Shown here piece by piece: positions 17,053 through 62,281 of a stretch of DNA of 64,000 nucleotides (positions are counted from its first letter, which is position 1; each line of letters begins with the position of its first letter). The stretch is from the NCBI GenBank assembly GCA_964473825.1, contig CAYYQL010000003.1, positions 76,992-140,991 of the forward strand. Reading direction: 5' to 3'. The stretch is from an uncultured archaeon (GTDB lineage: Archaea > Asgardarchaeota > Thorarchaeia > Thorarchaeales > Thorarchaeaceae). The position numbers were made by a program, and so were the translations under genes. The notes below the pieces were generated by a model. It ran no database searches. It was not told the origin of the DNA and saw nothing but the letters and a program-made list of their open reading frames with translations.

Positions 17053-17706
17053 TCAACATGTTCCTTCGCGGTTTGCCAAGAAGAGCCGTTTCTGTTTCTT
17101 GGAGCTTCTATCCGCAAGCCTTAGTGGTTCAGGGTAACCTTGCCGGGCGCATGCCCGTACGATCGAAACACAAGTCTGTAGAGCGACTCTATGGCCAACC
17201 GACACGTAGATTGGATTCTCTCTCTCCCCGAACCACAGAGCCATTCCCACAACCTCCCCTCGGTGAACAATCTTTGCCTGATTATCATCTCTCTCTTCAA
17301 TCTCGCCGAGAAGAAGACGCTTTGCAACTCCTATGGTCACAAGGTCTAACCTGACCCCAATATGGGATGCGAGACCAAATCTCCTCGGATGCAAGATTCC
17401 ATTTCCGTCCACAAGAACTGGTCCCGTTGGGCGGTCTTTCAACAGCAACTGCTCTAGAACTGGCCCTTCCCTCAAGTAGAACTGCTCTGGCACATACTCT
17501 TCCACTTCAGTTACTACAATCCGGGTTTCGCGGAGTGGTTTGTTGTTTGCGATATCGAGAGTCACCGCAGCTCCAAAAGCAAGACTCTCTTGATAGGCAA
17601 CATCAACGCCTGTCACATGATTCCTATTCAAGATGCTGTCATCTGTCCTGATGACGCTCTTACGGAGTCTATTCTGTTCTCCTTTGAGCCAACTTCTCAT
17701 TGACAA
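17053..17706 (-). CDS. nfi: endonuclease V
   Basis: GVDVAY..., DGNGILHPRRFGLASHIGV and IGVAK motifs. Confidence 0.8.
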   Translation of the reverse strand: MSMRSWLKGEQNRLRKSVIRTDDSILNRNHVTGVDVAYQESLAFGAAVTLDIANNKPLRETRIVVTEVEEYVPEQFYLREGPVLEQLLLKDRPTGPVLVDGNGILHPRRFGLASHIGVRLDLVTIGVAKRLLLGEIEERDDNQAKIVHRGEVVGMALWFGERENPIYVSVGHRVALQTCVSIVRACARQGYPEPLRLADRSSKKQKRLFLANREGTC

Positions 17707-17755: not shown

Positions 17756-18511
17756 CTACTTGAGATACTCCTCAATCACACCATGAGTTGCCTTCTTCCA
17801 TTCCACTGACTTCTTGGCAAGTTCCATAGCTATGTCGCCAGGGAGTGATTCGTCTTTAGAGTATTCTTCCATCTTCGACAGCCATGCGCTTGTCGTCAGT
17901 GAAGTGGGCTGAACTTCCTCGCCCTCAGTGGCTTTGATTAGCATCTCTCTTCCGTGTGCGACCTGAATGTAGATTGAGCTGAGCGGTGCTTTGTTGAGGA
18001 TCTCAAATACCAGTCGGTCCCAGCACATCTTTGCAGTCAACGCTCGTTTCAGTCTGCTTTGCTCGTCGTCGGGGAGTTCATTGTACTTCTGAACTGCGTC
18101 TTCGAAGCGTTCTGCGATTCCATCCACCATCGGTTTCAGTGCGGATTCATCCTCTCCCCATGCAGTGAATTCAACGGAGCGTTGAGCCTCTTCAACCCAT
18201 ATCCGTATCGTAACATCTCCATCATCCGACTTGACCGAAAATATTGCCTTACCCTTGAAAATTTGACTCTCGGCCTCGCTATACTCATTCAGGATTACCC
18301 CTGGTTTGCCGGCGACAGTATACCAGGCCAACCTGAATATAACTGACGACTCAGGTCGGTCATAGCTTAGAGTCCGTGAGATCTTGGGGCGATCATCCAT
18401 CTCTTCCAAGCGAACACTCCCGATGATATCTCTATGAAATTTTACCGAGTTCCTTATAGAGTTTGGCTGTCGCTCCCTCAACATCCTTTCTTCTTGCTCC
18501 AATTGCCGCAT
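17756..18511 (-). CDS. hypothetical protein co-oriented downstream of SepSecS (the start probably lies at an internal Met)
   Basis: 251-aa ORF on the same strand. The track ORF overlaps SepSecS by 80 nt, so the true start is probably MLRERQ or MDDRPK. No P-loop or other recognisable motif. Confidence 0.45.
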   Translation of the reverse strand: MRQLEQEERMLRERQPNSIRNSVKFHRDIIGSVRLEEMDDRPKISRTLSYDRPESSVIFRLAWYTVAGKPGVILNEYSEAESQIFKGKAIFSVKSDDGDVTIRIWVEEAQRSVEFTAWGEDESALKPMVDGIAERFEDAVQKYNELPDDEQSRLKRALTAKMCWDRLVFEILNKAPLSSIYIQVAHGREMLIKATEGEEVQPTSLTTSAWLSKMEEYSKDESLPGDIAMELAKKSVEWKKATHGVIEEYLK

Positions 18512-19754
18512 TCATCACGATGTAGCTATGAGGGTAGTTGTCTACAGATGACCCTCGTGCCCCTCTTTCTACTGCTCGGGGACCGGTCACTCTTCGCGTG
18601 TATAATCTCGCTCCCAGCTCATTGGCATCAATACCATCAAGGGTCATGGCACAGGAAATGGGGTTCTCAACTCTCAGGACTCTTTGGCCCAACTCGTCTG
18701 CCATCTCTGATAGTCTGGACTCCAGAAGTCTGCGGTTTATCTTCTGTTCCTCCATCAGCTCACGATACCCATCGTGACCGAGAACTAGAAGAGCGGCCAA
18801 TGTCTGCACAACTGGAGCCGCAGAGGCTCTTCCTGCATATGTTTCAGCAATACCCTCAATGCAAGCTTCATCGGGAGATACAACTACTGTTCCACCAACG
18901 GGTGTGAGAAAGTTCTTGTCATTGCTCTGAACAACGGCATCTACTCTACCAGCATCAACTGCGGATCTGACAGCCTCCATGATGGACTCGGATTGGACAC
19001 CATATGCATTGTTGATGACCATTGGTATATCTCTTTCTTGACAGACTCTTGCGATGGCCTTGATTGGATCTGACTCGCGGGGCGCGAAGAATGTGGTTGT
19101 TGCAAGTATTGCGCATTTGGTCTCTTGTGAAGCAGCTTTCTCCAAGCTATCTAGATCACACCTGACGGCATCTCCATCGATTTTCGTTTTGATGATGACC
19201 TCCTCGAGGCCGGCCATTGCTATGCCTCTTGTCGGAGACGTGTGGTCTATTCTAGGATAGAGGACGCGTCTGACACCGTATTTCATCCTCAGATACGAGA
19301 GTGTGAGGGAGATGGTCATGCCGGTAGACATCGGAAGGATCAGCCCGTCCCTAACATTTGGAAGCCCCAGCTTTCTTATGGCATCCAGCGCGATCTGATT
19401 GGCCAGCCTTTGCATGAGTGATGCCCCTGGGGCTTTTGGCTGCGGTGCGGTGATATGCCCGCTCCTTCCTATGCCATGGTTAAATCCTGCTGAGAGTTCT
19501 CCTATCAGGTTCGACGCTATTCTGCCCTCTCGCTCTCCCACTCGGGCTGCCTCAGGATCCTTATCCGAGTCCATTGATGAGAGAATCCTGAGCAACCACT
19601 CAACCTGAAGGTCCGTGAAACCTGTTGCAGGAAACTGTCTTCGATTGAGAAGATCCTTGATGGGAGACATCAACGATTCGAAAGTAACGCCTGCTCTTCG
19701 GCGGATGCTATCCGGTAGAGTATCCATCAACCTAGTGATAATCTCGTCATTCAT
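18432..19754 (-). CDS. O-phosphoseryl-tRNA(Sec) selenium transferase (SepSecS)
   Basis: DSDKDPEAARVGEREGR..GFNHGIGRSGHITAPQPKAPGAS and DAVVQSNDKNFLTPVGG closely match archaeal SepSecS. The length is 440 aa. Confidence 0.85.
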   Translation of the reverse strand: MNDEIITRLMDTLPDSIRRRAGVTFESLMSPIKDLLNRRQFPATGFTDLQVEWLLRILSSMDSDKDPEAARVGEREGRIASNLIGELSAGFNHGIGRSGHITAPQPKAPGASLMQRLANQIALDAIRKLGLPNVRDGLILPMSTGMTISLTLSYLRMKYGVRRVLYPRIDHTSPTRGIAMAGLEEVIIKTKIDGDAVRCDLDSLEKAASQETKCAILATTTFFAPRESDPIKAIARVCQERDIPMVINNAYGVQSESIMEAVRSAVDAGRVDAVVQSNDKNFLTPVGGTVVVSPDEACIEGIAETYAGRASAAPVVQTLAALLVLGHDGYRELMEEQKINRRLLESRLSEMADELGQRVLRVENPISCAMTLDGIDANELGARLYTRRVTGPRAVERGARGSSVDNYPHSYIVMNAAIGARRKDVEGATAKLYKELGKIS

Positions 19755-21148
19755 AGTTCAATTGTCTCCTTTCGTAGAATATCGAGCCGAACCTCTTCTC
19801 CGATCTCGACAGCATCTTCGAATGTTGCCGAAACCAAACCTCTTGTTCCAAAGGCTTGGCCGATAGTCCCATTGATGCCTGAGTCAGTAGTCACATTTCG
19901 CCCTTTTAGCCTCTCGGCCCCCTTCTTACTCGTTGCGAGTCCGATGAGTAAAGTATCTCTCTCGCGAACTCTCTCGACTCTACCTACTCTGGTACGTTTC
20001 CTGAACACTACGCGGTCATCTGAGCCATCCTCTATCTCTCCGGATCCGATGATTCTCATCTGATTAGCAGGAAAGTCTGTTCTCAGAAGTAGGACTTTCA
20101 TACCTCTCTCCGCAACTACCTTCTCTCTGAGTTTGAGGATGGCCATGAATCGAGGATTTGTGACTTCGGGTTGTAAGACTCTTCTGTCTTCAACGCGTTC
20201 GAAGGGTATGATTTCGCCTGTTGTGCTGGGCATGCCGACTGCCACACTCACTGTCATTCTCTCAGTCACCCGGCCGAGATATAGGGGGTTGATTGTGATT
20301 CTTGCAGTGACCAGACTTGAAGGCCGAACGGAGTCTGGCTCCGCTAGGTAGTCCCCTCTCTCTATATCTTCATGGCCAACATCGGGAATATTGACTCCTA
20401 TGCGATCCCCCGCTCTTGCTCGCTCTCGATCCTCTCCAAAGGTCTGTATTGTCCTGACTTTGGCATGCCATCCCTTGGGACAAACTTCTATGGTCGTGCC
20501 TTGTTCGAGTTCTCCTCTTACTATTGTGCCAGTGACTACTGTGCCATGACCTCGAACCGGGAATGCATGGTCGATGGGCATGAGGAGCGGGCCCGATACG
20601 TTTCGTTCTTTGGGATGTACTATCCTCTTGAGGGCCTCTTTCAGTTCATCTATTCCCCTCGAAGACTTTGCGGAACACCGAACATACTCAACATCCCGAA
20701 ATCTGGTTCCTGCCATCACTTCCCTCATGCGTTCTTCGGCCATATCGAGAGCAGACTCATCAACAAGGTCCGCTTTGGTTATTGCCACCACAATCGAGTC
20801 GATCTCCATTGCATCAAGAACAACCAGGTGCTCTCCGGTCTGTATCTTTGGCCCCTCGTCGGCAGCTACTGTCATGATTGCTGCATCAATGATGTTGGCT
20901 CCAGCCACAACACTTCTAATCAGATCTGCATGGCCAGGTGCATCTACCAGAGTCACAAGGTATGACTCTAGTCTGAACATAGTGAATCCCAAATCAATTG
21001 TGATTCCTCTCTCTTTGGATTGTGGATGCTTATCGAGACCTGCAGTTGATGTTTTCTCCGTGAGAGCCCTGGCAAGTTCTGTCTTTCCGTGGTCGATGTG
21101 TCCCATGAGGCCCACGTGTACAGGTACGAGTTCTTTCATCAGGAACAC
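19751..21148 (-). CDS. selB: selenocysteine-specific elongation factor (archaeal SelB)
   Basis: G domain GHIDHGKT, LVDAPGH and ITKAD motifs. The 465-aa length is short (archaeal/eukaryal type). Its stop overlaps the SepSecS start. Confidence 0.8.
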   Translation of the reverse strand: MFLMKELVPVHVGLMGHIDHGKTELARALTEKTSTAGLDKHPQSKERGITIDLGFTMFRLESYLVTLVDAPGHADLIRSVVAGANIIDAAIMTVAADEGPKIQTGEHLVVLDAMEIDSIVVAITKADLVDESALDMAEERMREVMAGTRFRDVEYVRCSAKSSRGIDELKEALKRIVHPKERNVSGPLLMPIDHAFPVRGHGTVVTGTIVRGELEQGTTIEVCPKGWHAKVRTIQTFGEDRERARAGDRIGVNIPDVGHEDIERGDYLAEPDSVRPSSLVTARITINPLYLGRVTERMTVSVAVGMPSTTGEIIPFERVEDRRVLQPEVTNPRFMAILKLREKVVAERGMKVLLLRTDFPANQMRIIGSGEIEDGSDDRVVFRKRTRVGRVERVRERDTLLIGLATSKKGAERLKGRNVTTDSGINGTIGQAFGTRGLVSATFEDAVEIGEEVRLDILRKETIEL

Positions 21149-21214
21149 CTATTCTTCACAGAGATTTCTTGATTTTAACCTTGGCCACTCACTGTTGTTC
21201 TGAATCTGTCCCCA

Positions 21215-21670
21215 ATGTATTACGAGGACTTTATTGGGGCATCCAATGAACACAGAATCATGGTGTCTAGATCTCTTGAGAAGATGATTCTCATTGCCGT
21301 CGGTCTTACCACCGCCGTGATGATTGGTGTTCCCGTACTCCTCTTCGCCATCAATAATCTGAACAGTGCAACTGAGTATGAGCTGGCGCGGCTATTCTCA
21401 GAGAAGGTGCATGAAGGAGTCACAAGGGTGGATAATGGCAGTTTGACACAGGTTCATTTTGATTTTACTGTTCCAGATGGAATTGAACTGATCTCAAACG
21501 GAAACACCCTTTCGATTTCTTATCGGAATGAGTACGGGGTCTTGGGCATCTGGACTGAAGATTATTCACATGATATACTCGTTGAGTATCCACCTGAAAC
21601 CGGCTACCAGTCTGTGACCATCAGGTTGGTTGATGACACATTGGTCATATCGTTTGCACCCGCAACGTAG
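21215..21670 (+). CDS. hypothetical membrane-anchored protein
   Basis: N-terminal TM helix followed by a beta-rich domain; no recognisable motif. Confidence 0.35.
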   Translation: MYYEDFIGASNEHRIMVSRSLEKMILIAVGLTTAVMIGVPVLLFAINNLNSATEYELARLFSEKVHEGVTRVDNGSLTQVHFDFTVPDGIELISNGNTLSISYRNEYGVLGIWTEDYSHDILVEYPPETGYQSVTIRLVDDTLVISFAPAT

Positions 21671-22826
21671 ATACTTCGCCATTTGCATCGTCATCATGTT
21701 TCAACACAACGTTTTTAATTATCTCTCAGGCTTTCGCCTTTCACAGTGCCTAAGGCGAGGACAGAGTGACATGGGCGAAAAAGCCGAAGAGTCCGAGACC
21801 ATTGACGAAGAGAAACCCTCTGAAGCAACCGGAATCAAGACCAAAGAAGAAGCCAAGGATAAGAAGCGCGAGCCTGTTCGCCGTAGACTAGCAGGGTCTT
21901 TGGGTCTGATTCTCAATGTACGCATGTTGCGAAGAGTGGTACAGATCATCTTCTTTCTGGGAATAAACGCTTACATCCTTACGGCATGGTTTGGTATGGA
22001 GCAAGTCACAGCATTCTGGACCGGTTTCAGGGATATACTACCAACATTGCCAATCATCGCACCCCTTGAGGCTCCCTTTGCTGTTCTAGCCGGTTCCTTT
22101 GATACTATACAGCGCGTCTTCACATCCGGAGCGTTTCCCTTCTTTACACTTGGAGCAATGATAATCATCCTCACCGTTATTGGCCGTGCAGGATGTGCTT
22201 GGGTATGCCCTATCGGCACAATTCAAGACTTCATCACACTTCCCAAGCGCACGAAGCTTAGACCCTCTCCTCAGACCGAAAAGGAGCTTCGTCGTATCAA
22301 GGCCTACGTCTTTATTATAGTCATGTTCTTCGCTGTATGGGTTGGAATCAGTGCATTGACGGGCACTGCGGATGTCCTCAGAACGGCACTGGGAATATTT
22401 GCAGACGCCGCTTTTGATCCTCTCAATCCTGCGTATATCCTCTTTGTCTTTGCTCCCGAGCAGATATGGCCCGAGAGCTTGGAAACACTCTGGTATCTGT
22501 TGTCATGGGACTTTGTTGTATGGCTTCAGTTTGGATTTGTTGTCGTCGTCTTCGTGATATCTTACTGGATTCCTAGATGGTTCTGCAGATGGCTATGTCC
22601 AGCTGGGTGGTTCTATGGTGTCTTCTCTCGGGACGCACTCATAGGCATTGGGCGAAACCCGGCTCGATGTACCCCGGACACATGCAACGTATGCGAGGAA
22701 GTATGTCCAATGAACATCCGAATACGCAAGTTTCCGTATCAACATATGTACAGTGCCGACTGCATTCTCTGCTTGGAATGTAAGAGTCACTGCCCCAACG
22801 GCGCTATCGAGCTCAGATTTTCCTAG
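21630..22826 (+). CDS. 4Fe-4S-binding polyferredoxin-like membrane protein (NapH/MauN-like); start probably ~21771
   Basis: TM helices plus repeated cysteine clusters (CPIGT, CPAGW, CNVCEEVCP, CILCLECKSHCP). Confidence 0.55.
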   Translation: MMTHWSYRLHPQRRYFAICIVIMFQHNVFNYLSGFRLSQCLRRGQSDMGEKAEESETIDEEKPSEATGIKTKEEAKDKKREPVRRRLAGSLGLILNVRMLRRVVQIIFFLGINAYILTAWFGMEQVTAFWTGFRDILPTLPIIAPLEAPFAVLAGSFDTIQRVFTSGAFPFFTLGAMIIILTVIGRAGCAWVCPIGTIQDFITLPKRTKLRPSPQTEKELRRIKAYVFIIVMFFAVWVGISALTGTADVLRTALGIFADAAFDPLNPAYILFVFAPEQIWPESLETLWYLLSWDFVVWLQFGFVVVVFVISYWIPRWFCRWLCPAGWFYGVFSRDALIGIGRNPARCTPDTCNVCEEVCPMNIRIRKFPYQHMYSADCILCLECKSHCPNGAIELRFS

Positions 22827-22837
22827 GAGTTTCTTGC

Positions 22838-23179
22838 TCAATCTCTCTCTGCTACCAGCTCGAATTCGTTTCGGTATTTGGCAAATCGTTCTAGCAGCTG
22901 ATGACCAACCTCCGTGAGGTTCGCTCCACCACCACCAACAGTTCCCCCTTTGTATGTCTCTAGGAGTCTGGTGTCGAGCTTCTTTTCGATTTTCCTGATG
23001 ACCCCCCAAGCGTATCTGTATGACATTCCAAGCTTTCTTGCCCCCTCAGTAATTGTGCCTGTTTCCTTTATGGCTTGAAGAATGGCATAAGCCCCGGGGC
23101 CAAACACGTATTGCCCATCTTTCTCAAGCCAGAGCTTCCAGTTCGGAAGCAACTCACGAACGATGTCTTCTTCTTTCAA
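22838..23179 (-). CDS. ModE-like winged-helix transcriptional regulator (N-terminal domain type)
   Basis: ..ILQAIKETGTITEGARKLGMSYRYAWGVIRKIEKKL.. matches the ModE N-terminal HTH. Confidence 0.55.
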   Translation of the reverse strand: MKEEDIVRELLPNWKLWLEKDGQYVFGPGAYAILQAIKETGTITEGARKLGMSYRYAWGVIRKIEKKLDTRLLETYKGGTVGGGGANLTEVGHQLLERFAKYRNEFELVAERD

Positions 23180-23233
23180 GAGATGGTTCTCCTAGACGGT
23201 ACAGTGTAGTACCTGTCCGCCTTTCTAAGTAAC

Positions 23234-23461
23234 TCAAGGGCCCCAACGGAGTCGTTCAGCCTTGGTATCTTGCTTGTAAGTCTTCTTCACAGTCTTCCAG
23301 TGATCTCTGCAGAGGTAGGTTTTCCGTTCACGCGGATCTTTGACTTTCAGACCCGCACCGTTTACACTCTTGCCGATTCGTGATGCTGAAAACGAGCGTT
23401 TGGCCGGCTTGTCACAACCTGCTATACTACAGACTTTCTTTGATCTGGCCAACTTGGTCAC
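23234..23461 (-). CDS. small basic zinc-finger protein
   Basis: CSIAGC...CRDH cysteine pattern, lysine-rich. Confidence 0.35.
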   Translation of the reverse strand: MTKLARSKKVCSIAGCDKPAKRSFSASRIGKSVNGAGLKVKDPRERKTYLCRDHWKTVKKTYKQDTKAERLRWGP

Positions 23462-23503
23462 TTCACCATCAAGCCGAGGATGTACATTATAACTATGACG
23501 GCG

Positions 23504-24496
23504 TTAGACTTGGTTCCCTTTAGGTGTCAAAAGGGACCCTTTGGAGAAATCAAACAGGACTTCCGTTTCAGAATCCAGTTTGAGCCGGACCAACTGGGTA
23601 TCTTCAACATCACCTATGATCACTGCATCCATTTCGTGTTTCGCGACGATATCTCTCAGGGCTTTCGTGTTCTCAGGTGTGACTGCAACGAGAAATCCCA
23701 ATGAAATATACATTCTCAGCCAATCTTCTAAGGCGATTGCTGGGGGACACGATACCTCTATTGCATCCAAGTCAATCAGAGCCCCGACGCCAGAGTACTC
23801 CACCATCATGCCTGCAGTTCCTATGATCCCTGCGGTCGATATGTCCTTTGAGGCCGTAACGAGCTGCTTGGCCGCAATGCTTGTCATGACCGCCAGTCGC
23901 TTTACGGTTTCATCAGAATCACGTTCAGTGACACTATCCCATCCAAGCCTGTAGTGTTCTCCTCTCTTGCCCTGTCTATCGTAGATCAAGACCAGTGTAT
24001 CCCCTGGAGTCGCACCTCCTGCTGTCAAGAGGTTTGTCTTCGAAACAGTTCCTGTTGCTGATCCAACCACATATGTTGAGCTTGATGCAGGGTTAGTGTG
24101 TCCTCTCACAATTGGAACCTTGAATCTATGAGAGCCTTCAATGAGCCCCTCCAGCAATCTCTCTCCTATCTTCTTGTTGGAGTAGGAGAGCGCGACCGCA
24201 AATGATGTGGGGACTCCTCCTGCTGCATAGATATCCATCACACTTGCAAGAACAGCATTGAACCCGGCTGCCTTGGGATGGTTGAGGCAGAGATCTTCCA
24301 CTATGGCATCGGTGGTCAGAAGAACAAAGTCGTCGCATGCAGTGCAAATGGCGGCTGAGTCTTCTCCCAGCGAATGAGGATACTCACCATCATATGACTC
24401 AGTTCGTAGTCGATGGATGATTCCTGGGAGTACATATTTGCGAGATATACCTTCAAACCCCTTCAGGAGTTTGACTATCTCATGTAGCCGACTCAA
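23504..24496 (-). CDS. AIR-synthase-related (PurM-like) protein; TTG start
   Basis: PurM N and C domains (GEDSAAI..., ...AAGGVP..). It has no GCGCK/Sec motif, so it is not SelD. Confidence 0.55.
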   Translation of the reverse strand: MSRLHEIVKLLKGFEGISRKYVLPGIIHRLRTESYDGEYPHSLGEDSAAICTACDDFVLLTTDAIVEDLCLNHPKAAGFNAVLASVMDIYAAGGVPTSFAVALSYSNKKIGERLLEGLIEGSHRFKVPIVRGHTNPASSSTYVVGSATGTVSKTNLLTAGGATPGDTLVLIYDRQGKRGEHYRLGWDSVTERDSDETVKRLAVMTSIAAKQLVTASKDISTAGIIGTAGMMVEYSGVGALIDLDAIEVSCPPAIALEDWLRMYISLGFLVAVTPENTKALRDIVAKHEMDAVIIGDVEDTQLVRLKLDSETEVLFDFSKGSLLTPKGNQV

Positions 24497-24523
24497 CCGA
24501 GATCACTCATTTCAGCGTATTCA

Positions 24524-24646
24524 CTACGGACTGAGAAACTCAATGGCAAAAGATGCTTGGTTCAGGAGAATCCCGATTCCAAGAAGCGACATACCAATCA
24601 TGAAAAAGATGAGCGCTCTAATCTCTGGACGGACCTCTTCGAACAC
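24524..24646 (-). CDS. candidate small single-TM protein, possibly Sec61-beta-like (40 aa, GTG start)
   Basis: Unlisted small ORF: MFEEVRPEIRALIFFMIGMSLLGIGILLNQASFAIEFLSP. The FEE...PE + TM arrangement is reminiscent of the archaeal Sec-beta C-terminus. The resemblance is weak. Confidence 0.2.
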   Translation of the reverse strand: MFEEVRPEIRALIFFMIGMSLLGIGILLNQASFAIEFLSP

Positions 24647-24715
24647 AATGAATCACCGTACGAGTCGCTCAGCCACCGCTGCTGCTTATAGGCATTACGG
24701 GATGACGACGCTATG

Positions 24716-25012
24716 CTAAAGTTTCTTTCGTATCTTCTTTACGTACTCCTTTGGAATCTCAGACGGATCCTGCCAGTCATCATCTTCATCAAGAAGAACT
24801 GGTTTCTCTGCCCTTCTGCACTTGCCTGTGTCAGTCATTTTGCGTTCTTTACACAGGCTGTACTGGCACCAGGGCCCGTCGCATTCATCATCAACCCATG
24901 TGCACCAATAGACCTTCTTTCCATGACGCTTAATCGTCTTCAATGCACTTGGTTTTCTCTCACACCGGAATCTCTCGCAGGCCGGTGTACAATCGGGAAG
25001 GTTCTCACTCAT
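24716..25012 (-). CDS. cysteine-rich small protein
   Basis: About 12 Cys in 98 aa, suggesting zinc binding. Confidence 0.4.
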   Translation of the reverse strand: MSENLPDCTPACERFRCERKPSALKTIKRHGKKVYWCTWVDDECDGPWCQYSLCKERKMTDTGKCRRAEKPVLLDEDDDWQDPSEIPKEYVKKIRKKL

Positions 25013-36931: not shown

Positions 36932-37226
36932 GTGGTTACAATAGCCTTGGGGCTTTTGAGGCTTGCATTCTTAGCAGAGCAAGCACATCCTGCCCATCCG
37001 AGTCTTCGTGGGATAAGAAGTGCTGCTAAACCCATATTCTGGTCTTGTATGCCTCAGACTATTCACCTGAATCCTTCAGTTGATAACTATAGCACAACCT
37101 GTGCTTCGGCATAATCCGCAACGCTTTATTACCTCAATCCCAGTCTTCGCAAGACGTATCGCCAACTGGCCGACGGCTGCAAATCACAATGCGCCAAAGC
37201 TAGAGGGTGTATCCGAGGAGAACAAA

Positions 37227-39188
37227 ATGCCTGAATCAAGAATCGGCGTCTTCCTGTGCCATTGTGGCAGTAACATAGCAGGCGTCGTGGACATACCCAC
37301 CGTGATGGAAGAAGTCAAGACTATTCCTGATGTTGTTCATGTTGAAGATTACAAATACGTGTGTTCCAAGCCAGGCCAACAGATTGTCAAAGACAAAATC
37401 AAAGAACACAAACTGAACCGCATTGTGATTGGGGCATGCTCCCCAAGAATGCATGAACTGACTTTCAGACAGACAATGCGTGAGGGCGGTCTCAACCCCT
37501 TCCTTCTAGAGATTGCCAATCTCCGTGAACACGACAGTTGGATTCATTCGAATGACCCCGAGGCCGCCACCGAAAAGGCGGTCGATCTGGTTCGTATGGC
37601 CGTGGCTCGTGCTAGACTTCTGGAACCTCTTGAGGAATCTGAGGTCGATATCAGGAAGTCAACACTGATAATCGGAGCAGGAATAGCTGGGATCTCGGCG
37701 GCACTGGACTTGGCAGATGCTGGTTTCAAGGTATATCTTGTGGAGAGAGAACCGAGCATAGGCGGAAAGATGGCACGACACGATAAGACATTTCCAACTC
37801 TTGATTGTTCAAGCTGTATCCTCACGCCCAGAATGGCTGAGGCTGGAGCTCACCCAAATATTGAGATTCTAACAATGGCCGAAGTTGAAAATGTCGACGG
37901 TTATGTTGGGAATTTCGAGGTCACTGTCAAACAGAAGCCGAGATACGTTATAGAAGACAAATGCACCTCCTGTGGCGATTGCTCTGACGTATGCCCCGTT
38001 GACATTCCTGCTGAGTTTGACGCTAATCTCACGTATCGTAAGGCAATCTACATCCCATTTGCTCAGGCTGTGCCTTCGGCTTATCTGCTCGATATGAACA
38101 GCTGCCTTGGCGTGGATGCAGTTCGTTGCGGCAAATGCAAGGATGCATGTGAGGCTGAAGCAATCAACTATGATGATTCTCTCAGTATCATCAAGTTAGA
38201 AGTGGGAACTATTATTGTTGCAACAGGTTTCGACATCTTTGATGCAACCCAGAAGGAGGAGTATGGATACGGCGAGTTTGCAAACGTTGTGAACATCATG
38301 GAGATGGAGCGCATGTTGAGTGCTGCTGGTCCCACCGAAGGTCATGTAGTTCGCCCCTCCGATTCTCAGGAGCCGAAGAAAATAGTCTACATCCAGTGCG
38401 TCGGCAGCCGAGATGAAAAGACGAACAAGTATTGCTCCCGAATCTGTTGCATGACAGCTATCAAGCAGGCACGAATGATACGTGACAAGACAGGGGCGCA
38501 GATTTATCTCTTCTATATTGACCTCAGGACCTTCGGCAAAGGCTATGAAGAGTTCTATGAAGAAACTGCCTCGGCGGGTGTAACTTTCATTCGAGGCAGG
38601 GTTGGTGAGATTATCGAACAGGCCGATCACGGCTTGGTCGTAAGAGGAGAAGACACCTTACTTGGCAAACCCATCCAGCTTGAGGATGTTGATCTTGTTG
38701 TTCTCTCGACTGGAGTTGTCCCGTCGCAGGGGGCCAAGAGCATCGCGAAGATTCTCAATCTCAGCCAATCGCCTGATGGATTTCTGATGGAGGCACATCC
38801 CAAACTTAGACCAGTAGACAGCTTCAATGATGGTATCTTTGTTGCTGGCATGGCTCAAGGCCCAAAGGACATCCCTGATACCGTTGCACAAGCGAAGGCT
38901 GCATCCTCGGGAGCGATGTCTCTTATGGGCAAGGGCCGGATTACCGTTGAACCCTACTACACCATTGTGGATGAGGACAAGTGTGCGGGTTGTAGGGTCT
39001 GTGTTTCTGTGTGTCCTTACAACGCAGTGACCATAAACGAGCGAGGAATGGCGAATGTCAACCCAGCTCTCTGCAAGGGGTGTGGTACCTGCACGTCTAC
39101 ATGTCCAAGCGGGGCAATGAAATCACAGCACTATACTGACGGCCAGATATCTGCAATGATAAAGGAGTATCTGTCGGTCCATGAATAA
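37227..39188 (+). CDS. hdrA: HdrA-like FAD/Fe-S flavoprotein (heterodisulfide reductase subunit A family)
   Basis: N-terminal CHCGSNIAG, FAD motif GAGIAGISAA, inserted ferredoxin CTSCGDCSDVCP...CGKCKDAC, and C-terminal 2x[4Fe-4S] CAGCRVCVSVCP...CKGCGTCTSTCP. The start was taken at an internal ATG of the track ORF at 37080. Confidence 0.75.
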   Translation: MPESRIGVFLCHCGSNIAGVVDIPTVMEEVKTIPDVVHVEDYKYVCSKPGQQIVKDKIKEHKLNRIVIGACSPRMHELTFRQTMREGGLNPFLLEIANLREHDSWIHSNDPEAATEKAVDLVRMAVARARLLEPLEESEVDIRKSTLIIGAGIAGISAALDLADAGFKVYLVEREPSIGGKMARHDKTFPTLDCSSCILTPRMAEAGAHPNIEILTMAEVENVDGYVGNFEVTVKQKPRYVIEDKCTSCGDCSDVCPVDIPAEFDANLTYRKAIYIPFAQAVPSAYLLDMNSCLGVDAVRCGKCKDACEAEAINYDDSLSIIKLEVGTIIVATGFDIFDATQKEEYGYGEFANVVNIMEMERMLSAAGPTEGHVVRPSDSQEPKKIVYIQCVGSRDEKTNKYCSRICCMTAIKQARMIRDKTGAQIYLFYIDLRTFGKGYEEFYEETASAGVTFIRGRVGEIIEQADHGLVVRGEDTLLGKPIQLEDVDLVVLSTGVVPSQGAKSIAKILNLSQSPDGFLMEAHPKLRPVDSFNDGIFVAGMAQGPKDIPDTVAQAKAASSGAMSLMGKGRITVEPYYTIVDEDKCAGCRVCVSVCPYNAVTINERGMANVNPALCKGCGTCTSTCPSGAMKSQHYTDGQISAMIKEYLSVHE

Positions 39189-39257
39189 GGGATGCTTCTG
39201 TCCTCTCAGTCACCTATGTCAATCGACGCATGAGTCCCCCTTGGAGCGATGTGAGAA

Positions 39258-39887
39258 ATGGATGAATCGGACCTGACAGTTGCAGTTCTTGCCGGCGGGA
39301 ATTCAAGCCGTTTCCAGATGGAGAAAGCACTGGCCCCATTCAATGGTCGTCCGCTTGTAAAACATATGATAGACACTGCCAGTACAATCTCTCCCAATAC
39401 GTTACTCGTACTCAATGCAGAACAAGAGACTGCCCAATTCGAAGAGGTGCTTGGGAGCGTACGAGTTGTTCGTGATCCTGAGGACTCGGTCAAGAGTGCG
39501 CTGACTGGAGCAGTCACTGCATTCGAGTTCGCTGAGACTCGATACACACTTCTTCTCCCCGTCGACACACCTCTCGCGAACACCACACTTCTGAGAATGC
39601 TTGGAGACCTTGCTCCAGGCCATGGTGCAGTTGTCCCTTCTTGGCCTTCTGGATATATCGAACCCCTTCATGCTGTCTATCTCTCAGAGCATGCATATGC
39701 TAACGGTCTGGATGTGCTGGAATCAGGAAAACACCGGATGAGCGATCTGCTGGATAGGCTTCGGAATGTTCTCTTCATATCAACGGCCATCTTGGAGCAG
39801 TTTGATCCGGAACTAAACACTTTCAAGAATCTCAACACCCCTGCTGAGCTTCGCGAGCTGGAGAGCATCTTAGCCAAGCGACGCTAG
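39258..39887 (+). CDS. mobA: molybdenum cofactor guanylyltransferase-like (MobA family NTP transferase)
   Basis: LAGGNSSRF...KAL..FNGRPL N-terminal motif. Confidence 0.65.
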   Translation: MDESDLTVAVLAGGNSSRFQMEKALAPFNGRPLVKHMIDTASTISPNTLLVLNAEQETAQFEEVLGSVRVVRDPEDSVKSALTGAVTAFEFAETRYTLLLPVDTPLANTTLLRMLGDLAPGHGAVVPSWPSGYIEPLHAVYLSEHAYANGLDVLESGKHRMSDLLDRLRNVLFISTAILEQFDPELNTFKNLNTPAELRELESILAKRR

Positions 39888-40972
39888 ACCGGAATGTTCT
39901 CGTGTCTAATCCGGCAGGTGCCTTCGTGTCCTACCATGCAGGGCCCATAGGGGTCAGCCGGGGTACAGCGTTCTCCAAAGAGTGGACAATCCACCGGGTC
40001 GACCATGCCGAGAATCACCTTGTGACAGAGACAACCCGGCAGAATATCAACTGATTCGATTGGAGGGAAGTCATACTTCTCTCTCGCGTCAAAATCCGAG
40101 AATTGTTCTTTCAGGAAGTATCCCGAGTCTCTGATTATGCCTAGCCCTCTCCATGGTGCATCTCGAAGGTCGAAGGTATCGCTGAGAGCCTTCTGTGCTG
40201 CTGGATTTCCTCCAGGTCTCACGACACGTCTGTATTCATTCTCTGATTCTGCTCTCCCCTCTTCTAACTGGACTAGTATCATGCGGATGCTCTCCAGAAC
40301 ATCTAGAGGCTCAAATCCCGCCGCCACGCATGGCACATGATATTTGCTTGCTAAGGGTTGAAAGACCTCTGTTCCAGTGACTACACTAACATGTCCGGGA
40401 GTGATGAAACCATCAACTGCAAATCCCTCAATATTCATCAGAAGATCCATGGCGGGTGGAATGACCTTGAGAGAAGTGAGCACAGAGAGGTTCTCAGGAG
40501 GAGTGCGAAGCACTTCCAAAGCTATTGTCGGCGCTGTTGTTTCGAAACCCGCCGCAACGAAGATGACCTCCTTGTTTGGGTTGTCCGCTGCTATTTTGAC
40601 TGCCTCGTTCGCGCCATAGACAACTCGGACATCTGCCCCTTCAGCCTTCTCTCGGGCTAGAGAGGAATCTGTTGAAGGAACACGTATCATATCTCCGAAG
40701 GTTGCAACAATATGACCTCTTCGGGCAAGCTCAATGGCCATGTCAACATCTTCGGCCGCGCAGACACAGACTGGACAGCCAGGACCAGCGACCAGTTCTA
40801 TTGTCTGGGGAAGAAGGGATCGAATGCCATTGCTACTTATAGTATCTTCATGGGTTCCGCATACGTGCACGATTCTGAAATGTCGGTTCCGACTCAATCT
40901 CCTGATTTCATCTACAACCGCGTGAGCATATCTAGCATCTCGAAATCCACTCTGTTCAAGCATGGGCCCCAT
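39884..40972 (-). CDS. hypD: [NiFe]-hydrogenase maturation factor HypD
   Basis: CGTHE, GPGCPVC, GFETT and a C-terminal C..C..C cluster. The start was taken at an internal Met of the track ORF, which ends at 41095. Confidence 0.8.
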   Translation of the reverse strand: MGPMLEQSGFRDARYAHAVVDEIRRLSRNRHFRIVHVCGTHEDTISSNGIRSLLPQTIELVAGPGCPVCVCAAEDVDMAIELARRGHIVATFGDMIRVPSTDSSLAREKAEGADVRVVYGANEAVKIAADNPNKEVIFVAAGFETTAPTIALEVLRTPPENLSVLTSLKVIPPAMDLLMNIEGFAVDGFITPGHVSVVTGTEVFQPLASKYHVPCVAAGFEPLDVLESIRMILVQLEEGRAESENEYRRVVRPGGNPAAQKALSDTFDLRDAPWRGLGIIRDSGYFLKEQFSDFDAREKYDFPPIESVDILPGCLCHKVILGMVDPVDCPLFGERCTPADPYGPCMVGHEGTCRIRHENIPV

Positions 40973-41200
40973 GTCCGACTCATACCGGAAAGCTATGAAT
41001 AAAAGAAATCTGCTTGAGGCCACTACTCCTGATAATAATCTGTTTCTTACAGTTTGGTGAGTGAGCCTCCCCTGTAAGAGACTTCTGCGTTCCACCCCTC
41101 CCCTGCCAGCGTCCAGAGCGGGATGTCAGCAAGGGGGGGAATCTTACATATATCTGACACTCTTGTCTGACAGATTAACTAGGAAAAGGGGGTATTTTCA

Positions 41201-51313: not shown

Positions 51314-52282
51314 ATGTCGAAGAAATCGAAGAAAACAGCGGCAGGAAATTCACTTGACATTCCACTTGAGGAACTACCGGGAGTAGGTGACAAGACTCGC
51401 CAAGAGCTCGTCAAAGCCGGCTACAAATCTGTTCGTGCAATAGCAGAAGCTGATCCCTCTAAGCTGGCTGAGAAGGTAGACGGAGTGGGCGATGTCACAG
51501 CCCAAAAGATGATTGATGCAGCCATGGAGCTAGTCAAAGATGCGTCACTTCAGGAACTACCGGGAGTGGGTGACAAGACTCGCCAAGGGCTCGTCAAGGC
51601 TGGTTATAAGCTTCTAAGCAAGATTGCAGAAACTGATCCGTCCGAACTGGCCGAGAAGGTAGATGGAGTCGGCGAGGCCACAGCCAAGAAGATTGTGAAG
51701 GCAGCAAAGAAGATGTCTAAGGCGCCTGCTGTGGAGAAGACGCCCGAGAAAGAAGCGGAAGAGAAACCGGCGCCAAAGAAGCCTGCCAAGAAGGCAAAAC
51801 CGGCCAAGAAAACGCCTAAACCAAAACCATCTGAACAGCGAGTCGACTCTCGTCTTGTTAGACTTGCTCGTGAGAAGAGACGCCGAAAACCTGCTTTCAG
51901 AAATGTACAATCACACAGATGGAAGCGTGTTAAGGACTCGTGGAGGAAGGTGCGGGGCATCGATAGTGCGGTACGTGAGAAGAAGAAAGGCAGACCTGCA
52001 ATGGTCAATGCTGGTTACCGTACCCCTAAGGCTGTCAGAGGCTTGCATCCGTCGAACTTGGAAGAAGTACTGGTCTATCGCCCTGCGGATTTGGACGGCC
52101 TCGACCCTGATATCCATGCAGTTCGCATCGGCGGAACCGTGGGGATGCGGAAGAAACAGGCCATAATCAAGAAAGCTGACACAATGATGCTTAGAGTACT
52201 CAATCCAGGTGCACCAGAAGATCTCATGGAAGAGGACCTCTTCACTGAGCTCGATGTCATGGATGAACTGGAGGTTGACTAG
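51314..52282 (+). CDS. rpl32e: 50S ribosomal protein eL32 with an N-terminal tandem helix-hairpin-helix extension and a lysine-rich linker
   Basis: The C-terminal core ..RWKRVKDSWRKVRGIDS..GYRTPKAVRGLHPS.. is L32e. The N-terminus carries two ~60-aa LxELPGVGDKTRQxLVKAGYK repeats. Confidence 0.85.
   Translation: MSKKSKKTAAGNSLDIPLEELPGVGDKTRQELVKAGYKSVRAIAEADPSKLAEKVDGVGDVTAQKMIDAAMELVKDASLQELPGVGDKTRQGLVKAGYKLLSKIAETDPSELAEKVDGVGEATAKKIVKAAKKMSKAPAVEKTPEKEAEEKPAPKKPAKKAKPAKKTPKPKPSEQRVDSRLVRLAREKRRRKPAFRNVQSHRWKRVKDSWRKVRGIDSAVREKKKGRPAMVNAGYRTPKAVRGLHPSNLEEVLVYRPADLDGLDPDIHAVRIGGTVGMRKKQAIIKKADTMMLRVLNPGAPEDLMEEDLFTELDVMDELEVD
51366..51729 (+). repeat. 182-nt tandem duplication inside the eL32 N-terminal extension (two HhH modules)
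   Basis: cttgaggaactaccgggagtaggtgacaagactcgccaag... recurs at 51548 with about 80% nucleotide identity. Confidence 0.7.
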
Positions 52283-60332: not shown

Positions 60333-61334
60333 ATGCCGAATCTACTCCCCGCTGACAAACAGAGAGAAATCATTATACGGGCTGAGGATACCACAAATGC
60401 AGAGTACGGATTCAATGCACCCAAGGATATTCCTGTTGAGCAATTGTTGCAGAACGGCGTCATAAATCTTGACAAACCATCGGGGCCCACCAGTCATGAG
60501 ATTGCCACATGGGTCGGACGGATTCTAAATGTGGACAAAACCGGACATTCAGGAACACTCGACCCTGCAGTGACGGGAATTCTTCCTGTTGGCATAGGTG
60601 ATGCGACAAAGGCAATGCAGGCTCTACTCCCTGCAGGAAAGGAATACGTGTGTGTTCTTGAACTCCATAAGAAGACACCTGAAGAAGATATTCGAGGCGT
60701 GATAGAGGAGTTCACGGGGAAGCTGTACCAGAAGCCTCCTCTTAGGTCATCCGTTAGGAGAATACTGCGGGTGAGAGAGGTATACTACAACGAGATACTA
60801 GAAATCCGGGGACGGCTTGTACTGTTTCGGGTAGGATGTCAGGCCGGGACCTACATCCGAAAACTATGTTTTGACATTGGCGAGGCACTGGGGAGCGGTG
60901 GGCATATGCGCGAGCTCAGGAGAACCCGCGTTGGTAAGTTCCGCGAGGATGAACATCTATGTACGCTTCACGACCTCACTGATGCATATCATTTCTGGAA
61001 AGAGGACGGTGACGAAACAGATATTCGGAAGTTCGTTCTTCCCGTGGAGAGCGCTTTAGCTCATCTCCCTGAAATGGTGATTAGAGACAGCGCCGTGGCC
61101 GCTCTCTGTCACGGTGCGGATTTGGCCGCCAATGGTGTCCTGCGCCTCAGTACAGGTATCCAGCCTGATGACTTGGTCGCCGTCAGGACGCTCAAGGGGG
61201 AGGCTGTCTGCCTCTCTACTGCGAAGATGAAGAGCGACAACATTGCAAAATCTAAGAGCGGCATTGTAGCTGTGACTGACAGAGTCTTGATGGAACGAGG
61301 ACGATATCCGAGAATGTGGCAATCCAAAGAGTGA
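60333..61334 (+). CDS. cbf5: H/ACA RNP pseudouridine synthase Cbf5 (TruB family with PUA domain)
   Basis: ..NLDKPSGPTSHE..., GTLDPAVTGILPVGIG (catalytic Asp), and a C-terminal PUA domain. Confidence 0.9.
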   Translation: MPNLLPADKQREIIIRAEDTTNAEYGFNAPKDIPVEQLLQNGVINLDKPSGPTSHEIATWVGRILNVDKTGHSGTLDPAVTGILPVGIGDATKAMQALLPAGKEYVCVLELHKKTPEEDIRGVIEEFTGKLYQKPPLRSSVRRILRVREVYYNEILEIRGRLVLFRVGCQAGTYIRKLCFDIGEALGSGGHMRELRRTRVGKFREDEHLCTLHDLTDAYHFWKEDGDETDIRKFVLPVESALAHLPEMVIRDSAVAALCHGADLAANGVLRLSTGIQPDDLVAVRTLKGEAVCLSTAKMKSDNIAKSKSGIVAVTDRVLMERGRYPRMWQSKE

Positions 61335-61747
61335 TCGTTTCTCATGTACTAAAGCGAATATTGATTTACTAGTACGGGGACCAGTACGTGGCCCTGGAGC
61401 GAAAGCGCAACTGACGGTACTCATCATTCTGATGAGAGCTGAGGAAGCTCCCAACTACAGTCGGTGCCGGTCCTGTGCAAGCAGGGAGGTGAGAGCCTCG
61501 CTCTGGGAACAGAAACGACACCTCCAAGCCACAAATGACAATGATGCGGAAGTTGAATCCGTTGAGAAGTGTCTTGGTCCGGTTGAAACGACCCATCACC
61601 GTGTAGCAACTCCAAGAATACATCGTTGACGTGCCGACCCGAGGTGTAGGGTAGGAGGCTTAGTCTGATGTTGCAAGGTTCTCGCGTGGCAACACGCCTG
61701 AACGGAACAGAATTGGGGCTATTCTTCGGACCAGGGCCAATCCCATT

Positions 61748-62281
61748 TCAGATATCGTTCATGAACTCCTTCTGGACTTGAACCACTTGAGTACTATCCT
61801 TACACTCTGAATAGACTTGAAGAGGTTCCTTGTTCAGAGTGAGAAATGTTGGCCCCCACTTGAAGACCGACATGAGGTCCTCTGCCTGGTTCTTGAAGCC
61901 CATGATATAGAGGGCCGCAGCCACAGCCTCAGCAGTTGATAATTTGATTGGCTTGTATGTATTGACTGGATTGGCTGCAACGAGATACGGTAGAGCCCTT
62001 TGTCGTGTGCTCCAAGTCTGGGCAAATATCTCTTCAGCCCTTTTCCACGAGCAGTCCAGTGCGACAATTCCCGATTTCACCGCATGAACAGAATCTTCTC
62101 TTGAGAGAGCTCTCTCCGATACCGGATTCAGGACAATACTCTTGCGCGGAATCTTCCCGGTCGAATGGACAATTTCGGCCCTACCCATCCGTACAAGCCG
62201 TAGTCCTGTGCATTTCTTGGGATCGCACTGTGCAGCGTGATAGATGATTACCCGGATTTTCTGTGATTTCGCCATATACAT
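61748..62281 (-). CDS. tsr3: 16S rRNA aminocarboxypropyltransferase Tsr3 (DUF367)
   Basis: ..AQCDPKKCTGLRL.. N-terminal motif typical of Tsr3. Confidence 0.7.
   Translation of the reverse strand: MYMAKSQKIRVIIYHAAQCDPKKCTGLRLVRMGRAEIVHSTGKIPRKSIVLNPVSERALSREDSVHAVKSGIVALDCSWKRAEEIFAQTWSTRQRALPYLVAANPVNTYKPIKLSTAEAVAAALYIMGFKNQAEDLMSVFKWGPTFLTLNKEPLQVYSECKDSTQVVQVQKEFMNDI

Follow-up and report, generated by a model that had tools for sequence, protein, structure and literature searches.

A probable selenocysteine operon of aSelB, SepSecS and an Asgard-specific third gene in a Thorarchaeal genome

Introduction

What do two genes of the selenocysteine pathway do in a stretch of archaeal DNA in which none of the other pathway components can be recognised? 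The question is raised by 64,000 nucleotides (nt) from an uncultured member of the Thorarchaeaceae (contig CAYYQL010000003.1, positions 76,992 to 140,991; the whole of this stretch is referred to as the window), in which genes for aSelB/EFSec and SepSecS adjoin each other. Selenocysteine is made on its own tRNA: SerRS charges tRNA-Sec, and PSTK then phosphorylates the seryl group on this carrier. SepSecS, an enzyme dependent on pyridoxal phosphate (PLP), converts O-phosphoseryl-tRNA(Sec) to Sec-tRNA(Sec), taking the selenium from selenophosphate made by SelD, and aSelB/EFSec in complex with GTP binds Sec-tRNA(Sec) and brings it to UGA codons marked by a selenocysteine insertion sequence (SECIS). 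The genes discussed here would supply the SepSecS step, in which selenium takes the place of phosphate, and the EFSec delivery step.

A preliminary description of the window had spoken of a gene pair in one minus-strand operon. This holds for aSelB and SepSecS, but a third co-oriented gene was overlooked; its product is labelled X here. Taking the evidence as a whole, we find it very likely that the three genes form a functional Thorarchaeal operon, aSelB-SepSecS-X, whose partner components are encoded elsewhere. Below, we weigh this explanation against its rivals and consider what X might do.

Results

Identity of aSelB and SepSecS

Three consecutive minus-strand open reading frames (ORFs) fill positions 17756 to 21148 (Table 1). 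The product of the first, at 19751-21148, scores 288.5 bits against TIGR00475 (selB), above the curated NCBIfam cutoff of 242.25 bits, although it covers only positions 2-296 of this 581-position model of bacterial length. Pfam recognises GTP_EFTU, GTP_EFTU_D2 and aSelB_III (PF21440, 43 bits; cutoff 19), and residues 10-460 align with Methanococcus maripaludis SelB (4AC9) through the C-terminal region (phmmer, E = 1.6e-94). GTPase motifs G1 to G4 read GHIDHGKT (residue 16), RGITID (47), DAPGH (69) and TKAD (124). The protein is of the archaeal type, having domains III and IV and lacking the bacterial winged-helix SECIS-binding extension. Of its two possible starts, the ATG is favoured by relatives and by the Logan gene call.

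The second product passes TIGR03531 with 472.2 bits (cutoff 224.85), scores 403.7 bits with PF05889 and matches M. maripaludis SepSecS (2Z67, E = 2.8e-105) over its full length. Residues R75, R97, S98, Q105, H171, D279, K280 and R309 correspond to R72, R94, S95, Q102, H166, D277, K278 and R307 of that enzyme, for which mutagenesis showed K278, D277, R72, R94, R307, Q102 and H166 to be required for activity (Araiso et al., PMC2275076). All tested catalytic residues, the PLP lysine and the three active-site arginines included, are intact in the window.

That the first ORF might instead encode aIF2-gamma or EF-1alpha, and the second some generic PLP enzyme (SepCysS or MfnA, for example), has a negligible probability. 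The EF-Tu, EF-1alpha, aIF2-gamma, SepCysS and MfnA models do match, as superfamily kin would, but two- to four-fold or, for SepCysS (19.8 bits against 301), still further under their own cutoffs. By contrast, both proteins pass the cutoff of their own equivalog model, selB or SepSecS, the aSelB-specific domain III is seen by Pfam and the alignments to 4AC9 and 2Z67 run over the full length. Both identities proposed in the preliminary description therefore stand.

Signals of a common operon

The aSelB stop and the SepSecS start share a 4-nt ATGA (19751-19754, minus strand; context ...CTATGAATG... / ...GAACTATGAATGAC...), and a Shine-Dalgarno-like AGGAGA motif lies 11 nt upstream of it. This overlap, which had been noted before, can be read directly in the sequence and is kept, with a length of 4-26 nt, in 48 of the 51 related loci that could be scored. 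Overlap and motif suggest that aSelB and SepSecS may be translated in a coupled fashion, so that the synthase and the carrier of Sec-tRNA(Sec) would be produced together. Some 25-30 nt before the GTG start of aSelB, the divergent intergenic region contains a TATA-like TTAAAA (21173-21178), a plausible candidate for the archaeal promoter of the operon. At the other end, a gap of 14-52 nt separates SepSecS from X in 57 of 59 loci, from which we infer that X is probably co-transcribed with SepSecS.

A canonical Thorarchaeal locus, broken in one small clade

To place the window, 69 reference-genome loci were collected via X, and the window proteins were mapped onto each. The closest homologues of X, SepSecS and SelB all belong to metagenome-assembled genomes (MAGs) of Thorarchaeota, and relatives are 60-93% identical. 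By identity of X, L002 (93%) and L003, from a Thorarchaeota MAG (84%), come nearest among the reference loci. An archaeal ribosomal-protein/SecY cluster and a Roadblock/LC7 gene elsewhere in the window are consistent with the Thorarchaeal assignment.

In 60 Thorarchaeal loci an intact SepSecS gene stands directly upstream of X, and SelB upstream of SepSecS. ARAGORN places a tRNA-Sec gene downstream of X in 54 loci, at a median distance of ~44 nt; it is 91 nt long and highly conserved, with anticodon TCA and an encoded 3' CCA (loci L004-L069, e.g. L029 10686-10776). By tblastn, a convergent PSTK gene comes right after it in ~52 loci. The usual Thorarchaeal locus is hence aSelB -> SepSecS -> X -> tRNA-Sec <- PSTK; it unites X with four of the machinery's five known components.

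While ~50 other Thorarchaeal species have tRNA-Sec and PSTK within 1 kb downstream, both are missing after X in the window, L002 and L003, where endonuclease V and urocanate hydratase are found instead. Endonuclease V occurs downstream of X only in these three loci; it marks a rearrangement breakpoint and does not belong to the selenocysteine machinery. The separation of tRNA-Sec and PSTK from the locus is a derived trait of a small clade; in it, an ancestral aSelB-SepSecS-X-tRNASec locus with convergent PSTK would have been broken right after X.

On the other side of the operon, a block of five genes (21215-25012; Table 1) adjoins it in ~50 Thorarchaeota species and is also kept where SelB and SepSecS have been lost.

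Components missing from the window

Three kinds of search for tRNA-Sec in the 64 kb were negative: ARAGORN reported no such gene, an nhmmer profile of the 54 Thorarchaeal copies matched nowhere, and Rfam, at gathering thresholds as well as at E <= 5, returned RNase P RNA only, and neither tRNA-Sec nor SECIS. With the PSTK of locus L079 as query, tblastn gave no match in the window better than E = 0.13, and none to KTI12/AAA_33 was seen among the window ORFs scanned, a set from which the ribosomal-protein genes and most ORFs below 120 amino acids (aa) were left out as individual queries. Thorarchaeal SelD and FrhA/VhuU-type selenoprotein (FrhA-U) queries, taken from the supplement of Huang et al. 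(PMC11227280), produced no tblastn match in the 64 kb better than E = 1. Two scans of the window for in-frame TGA codons yielded antisense and overlap artefacts only, and no credible split ORF. The absence of tRNA-Sec, PSTK, SelD and a UGA-containing selenoprotein gene, as stated in the preliminary description, is thus borne out by every search.

Three candidates deserve mention. A 107-codon read-through after the TGA stop of Tsr3 was rejected as a selenoprotein, being antisense to the RNase P RNA gene. The AIR-synthase-like (AIRS-like) ORF was rejected as an unconventional SelD: it reaches 48.6 bits with TIGR00476, whose cutoff is 125; its best models, methanogenesis-marker-2 and sll0787 AIR-synthase-like, are both below cutoff, and the Thorarchaeal SelD query does not match it at E <= 10. 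The preliminary description had listed it, as a PurM-like gene, among non-selenocysteine forms. The HdrA2-like gene (37080-39188) scores 937 bits, short of the exception-level cutoff of 1100, and is uninterrupted, as had also been described; it is followed by a MobA-like nucleotidyltransferase gene and hypD (37080-41095), and the adjacent frhD/vhuD partner typical of selenoprotein hdrA is lacking.

A relic or a working operon?

Do aSelB and SepSecS still function in this clade? Against a working operon it counts that tRNA-Sec and PSTK occur neither where they normally lie nor anywhere else in the 64 kb, and that SelD and a selenoprotein gene are lacking there too. The missing tRNA-Sec and PSTK would fit a clade that is losing selenocysteine, with these two genes gone and aSelB and SepSecS remaining as non-functional or repurposed leftovers; moreover, loss of selenocysteine is recurrent in Thorarchaeota, deletion or decay being seen in seven loci. 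The state of the two genes, however, makes such a relic very improbable. Both ORFs are intact in the window, in L002 and in L003, and the catalytic residues and GTPase motifs are all conserved. In comparison with L002 and L003, omega is 0.11-0.19 for aSelB and 0.06-0.15 for SepSecS, which, across a synonymous divergence (dS) of up to ~1.7, amounts to purifying selection. Where true losses have occurred elsewhere, genes are deleted or fragmented, as in L027. Given this continued selection on SelB and SepSecS, the tRNA-Sec, PSTK, SelD and selenoprotein genes probably lie elsewhere in the genome.

X, an Asgard-specific protein of predicted two-domain fold

The ORF that contains X had been listed as 17756-18511, with an upstream extension that is probably unused: the 211 database homologues of X, nearly all of them 211-217 aa long, align from M38 of the long ORF, and their lengths set the start at the ATG at 18400. 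With 230.2 bits, X clears the cutoff of 132 for NF045535 (Sel_Asgard). Among 1.84 billion representative proteins, a profile of this very small family returned 29 matches; no homologue outside Asgard-type contigs was found among these proteins, a search in which Methanococcales were not addressed directly. Pfam assigns no domain to X, and the 34 members of its alignment give scattered single matches only at E <= 10. One of these, to a SelB wing (E = 0.067), was discarded as a chance hit. In the literature, Huang et al. (PMC11227280) devote one sentence to an Asgard-exclusive hypothetical protein that is often encoded close to secS, efSec and pstk.

An AlphaFold2 model of X, based on the 34-sequence alignment, has a mean predicted local distance difference test score (pLDDT) of 93.6 and a predicted template modelling score (pTM) of 0.90; the N-terminal domain modelled alone has a pLDDT of 93.3. 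The model consists of an N-terminal beta-alpha-beta4-alpha domain (residues 6-108), of a helix-grip or TBP-like alpha+beta type, and a C-terminal four-helix bundle (111-213). Seven residues are invariant in the family (F22, D128, Y144, R151, E152, W201, K202), and all but F22 sit on the bundle. A profile of X finds nothing below E = 0.7 among PDB sequences, and Foldseek finds nothing in the PDB at E <= 1e-3, its weak top matches being RnlA, AlkA and KA1; for all its confidence, the predicted fold thus has no solved homologue by either search. Two tempting readings were rejected, namely a HEPN-like C-terminal bundle, as the alignment lacks an Rx4-6H motif, and a selenium-carrier site at Cys126 of the Thorarchaeal "CWDR" motif, as distant members lack the cysteine. 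In the model, X shows no sign of catalysis or of a classical RNA-binding surface, and a protein-protein adaptor or escort would be the most economical guess.

X with and without selenocysteine genes

How closely is X tied to selenocysteine? Six Thorarchaeal loci (L012, L015, L024, L041, L046, L061) lack SelB, SepSecS and PSTK, and in a seventh (L027) only fused fragments of the three remain. tRNA-Sec is absent from these seven loci or, in L024 and L046, decayed, with 8-10 substitutions that break its helices. For the sister pair L012/L015, a database-wide search with the SepSecS of their sister clade found none at 69%-85% identity, which is suggestive of a real loss. Within Thorarchaeota, at least five lineages have separately undergone loss or decay of the selenocysteine locus, in forms that range from clean deletions to pseudogenes.

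Several observations count against a dedicated role of X in the operon. X is intact in all seven loci in which selenocysteine genes are gone or degraded, and its omega in the pair L012/L015, the one pair in which constraint after the loss was measured, is 0.097, against a median of 0.096 for 28 selenocysteine-positive pairs. Some distant homologues of X stand alone, away from selenocysteine genes; in one distant locus (L072) X is paired divergently with an ORF151-like gene, an arrangement shared with those Thorarchaeal loci that lack selenocysteine genes. Gene order is conserved over the whole neighbourhood throughout Thorarchaeota, which makes adjacency by itself weaker evidence within this group. 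Finally, X is acidic (isoelectric point, pI, 4.9), its structure indicates no mechanism, and its fold matches are generic, including helical bundles such as CheA-P1 and Vps28-CTD.

These points could be accounted for if X were unrelated to selenocysteine, a housekeeping Asgard protein with the divergently transcribed ORF151 as its ancestral partner, around which aSelB-SepSecS and tRNASec-PSTK were inserted and then held by synteny inertia: ORF151-like genes and X form divergent pairs without selenocysteine genes in the depleted Thorarchaeal loci and in L072, the constraint on X is unchanged after the loss, stand-alone homologues exist, and the flanking block is syntenic clade-wide. We consider this rather unlikely on three grounds. 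Four very distant homologues of X (profile E 1e-71 to 1e-6) immediately follow SepSecS amid unrelated neighbours and in loci of different gene order; in L081-L084, the succession SepSecS -> X recurs with short gaps between flanks that are unrelated, the other selenocysteine genes being arranged differently (Table 1). The narrow spacing in nearly all loci indicates co-transcription. Lastly, NCBI curators and Huang et al. (PMC11227280) independently made the same association.

We read X as a protein that is linked to SepSecS but, because it survives the loss of selenocysteine in relatives, not exclusively dedicated to selenocysteine, and whose role outlives the trait. On the most likely reading, to which we give about an even chance, X would assist without catalysis, either in the SepSecS step or later in the pathway.

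Table 1. Genes and signals of the selenocysteine locus in the window, its flanks, and features of related loci
Feature	Position	Strand	Remarks
X, Asgard-specific "putative selenocysteine system protein" NF045535	17756-18400	-	214 aa; 31 nt after SepSecS stop
SepSecS (O-phosphoseryl-tRNA(Sec) selenium transferase)	18432-19754	-	440 aa
aSelB/EFSec (archaeal selenocysteine-specific elongation factor)	19751-21148	-	465 aa from GTG 21148; 462 aa from ATG 21139
Divergent intergenic region upstream of aSelB	21149-21214	-	66 nt
Endonuclease V	17053-17706	-	PF04493, 161 bits; 49 nt after X
ORF151, membrane-anchored	21215-21670	+	flanking block
NapH-like membrane ferredoxin	21630-22826	+	flanking block
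ModE-like helix-turn-helix (HTH) protein	22838-23179	-	flanking block
AIR-synthase-like protein	23504-24496	-	flanking block
Cys-rich 98-aa ORF	24716-25012	-	flanking block
Degenerate tRNA-Sec pseudogene, L024	10686-10776		
Degenerate tRNA-Sec pseudogene, L046	10657-10747		
Gene order in L079, L080			aSelB-SepSecS-X-tRNASec-PSTK
Gene order in L081, L082			aSelB-SepSecS-X
Gene order in L083, L084			tRNASec-SepSecS-X; aSelB 5 kb off, other strand

Further observations

Stand-alone distant homologues of X in L071, L075 and L078 each precede a same-strand ORF of ~70 aa (L071 818-1036; L075 8695-8910; L078 8699-8911). Just before aSelB, L081 (789-1871) and L082 (1799-2881) encode a conserved protein of ~360 aa (47% identity) that is not found in the window; it has no precomputed Pfam match, and its GS...DxD motif looks nucleotidyltransferase-like by eye. 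Locus L014 carries an FrhA/VhuU-type small selenoprotein gene (20296-20445, minus strand) with 84% identity to a published Thorarchaeal sequence, ~10 kb from its own selenocysteine locus. Within the window, the archaeal RNase P RNA gene (152 bits; 61395-61733, plus strand) lies between Cbf5/TruB (60333-61334) and Tsr3/DUF367 (61748-62281, minus strand), and a 322-aa ORF (51314-52282, plus strand) apparently fuses L32e (residues 192-297) to N-terminal helix-hairpin-helix repeats (HHH_5, 18-70).

Discussion

How unusual is this operon? The preliminary description had taken aSelB and SepSecS as diagnostic of a pathway confined to a few archaeal lineages. Diagnostic they are, but their presence is no surprise, as selenocysteine use is documented in Thorarchaeota, in 77% of Thorarchaeia according to Huang et al. 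(PMC11227280); the pair is therefore ordinary for the lineage, and the operon of the window is a known kind of system in a group where it is common. With the machinery described for Thorarchaeia and Lokiarchaeia (PMC4989117, PMC11227280) it shares an EFSec and a SecS of archaeal/eukaryal type and the Asgard-only hypothetical protein, the difference being that the window clade no longer has tRNA-Sec and PSTK at the locus. In Lokiarchaeum, the machinery genes were reported from separate contigs except for EFsec and tRNAsec (PMC4989117). The likeness to M. maripaludis SelB (4AC9) and SepSecS (2Z67) extends to full-length homology, domain plan and catalytic residues, and the neighbourhoods of selenocysteine genes in Methanococcales differ from those in Asgard archaea (PMC11227280). 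What is added here is the third gene, the finding that tRNA-Sec and PSTK have left the locus in one clade, and an X that is linked to SepSecS yet not exclusive to selenocysteine.

Could X have a more specific task? We know of no archaeon in which a role of the SBP2 or SECp43 type has been assigned to a protein. It is conceivable, though improbable, that X is an Asgard-specific factor which acts alongside SepSecS and EFSec in making or decoding selenocysteine, either as an escort of tRNA-Sec or Sec-tRNA(Sec) or as a link between EFSec and the eukaryote-like SECIS of Asgard archaea; if so, X would fill an SBP2/SECp43-like role. The analogy with eukaryotic SBP2 and SECp43/TRNAU1AP, itself hypothetical, would lie in X being lineage-specific, non-enzymatic and genetically tied to SepSecS and EFSec. 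Unlike them, X has no sequence or fold similarity to these proteins, lacks an L7Ae or RRM domain, is acidic and persists without the selenocysteine machinery.

For the organism, the aSelB/SepSecS pair mainly marks a selenocysteine-using Thorarchaeote. For the family of X, persistence under unchanged selection, as seen in one pair of loci, tempers the curated name "selenocysteine system protein". At the same time, Asgard SECIS elements are eukaryote-like and no SBP2 was found (PMC4989117, PMC11227280); given this combination, X, for which a confident predicted model now exists, may be considered a candidate for the link between SECIS and EFSec in Asgard archaea.

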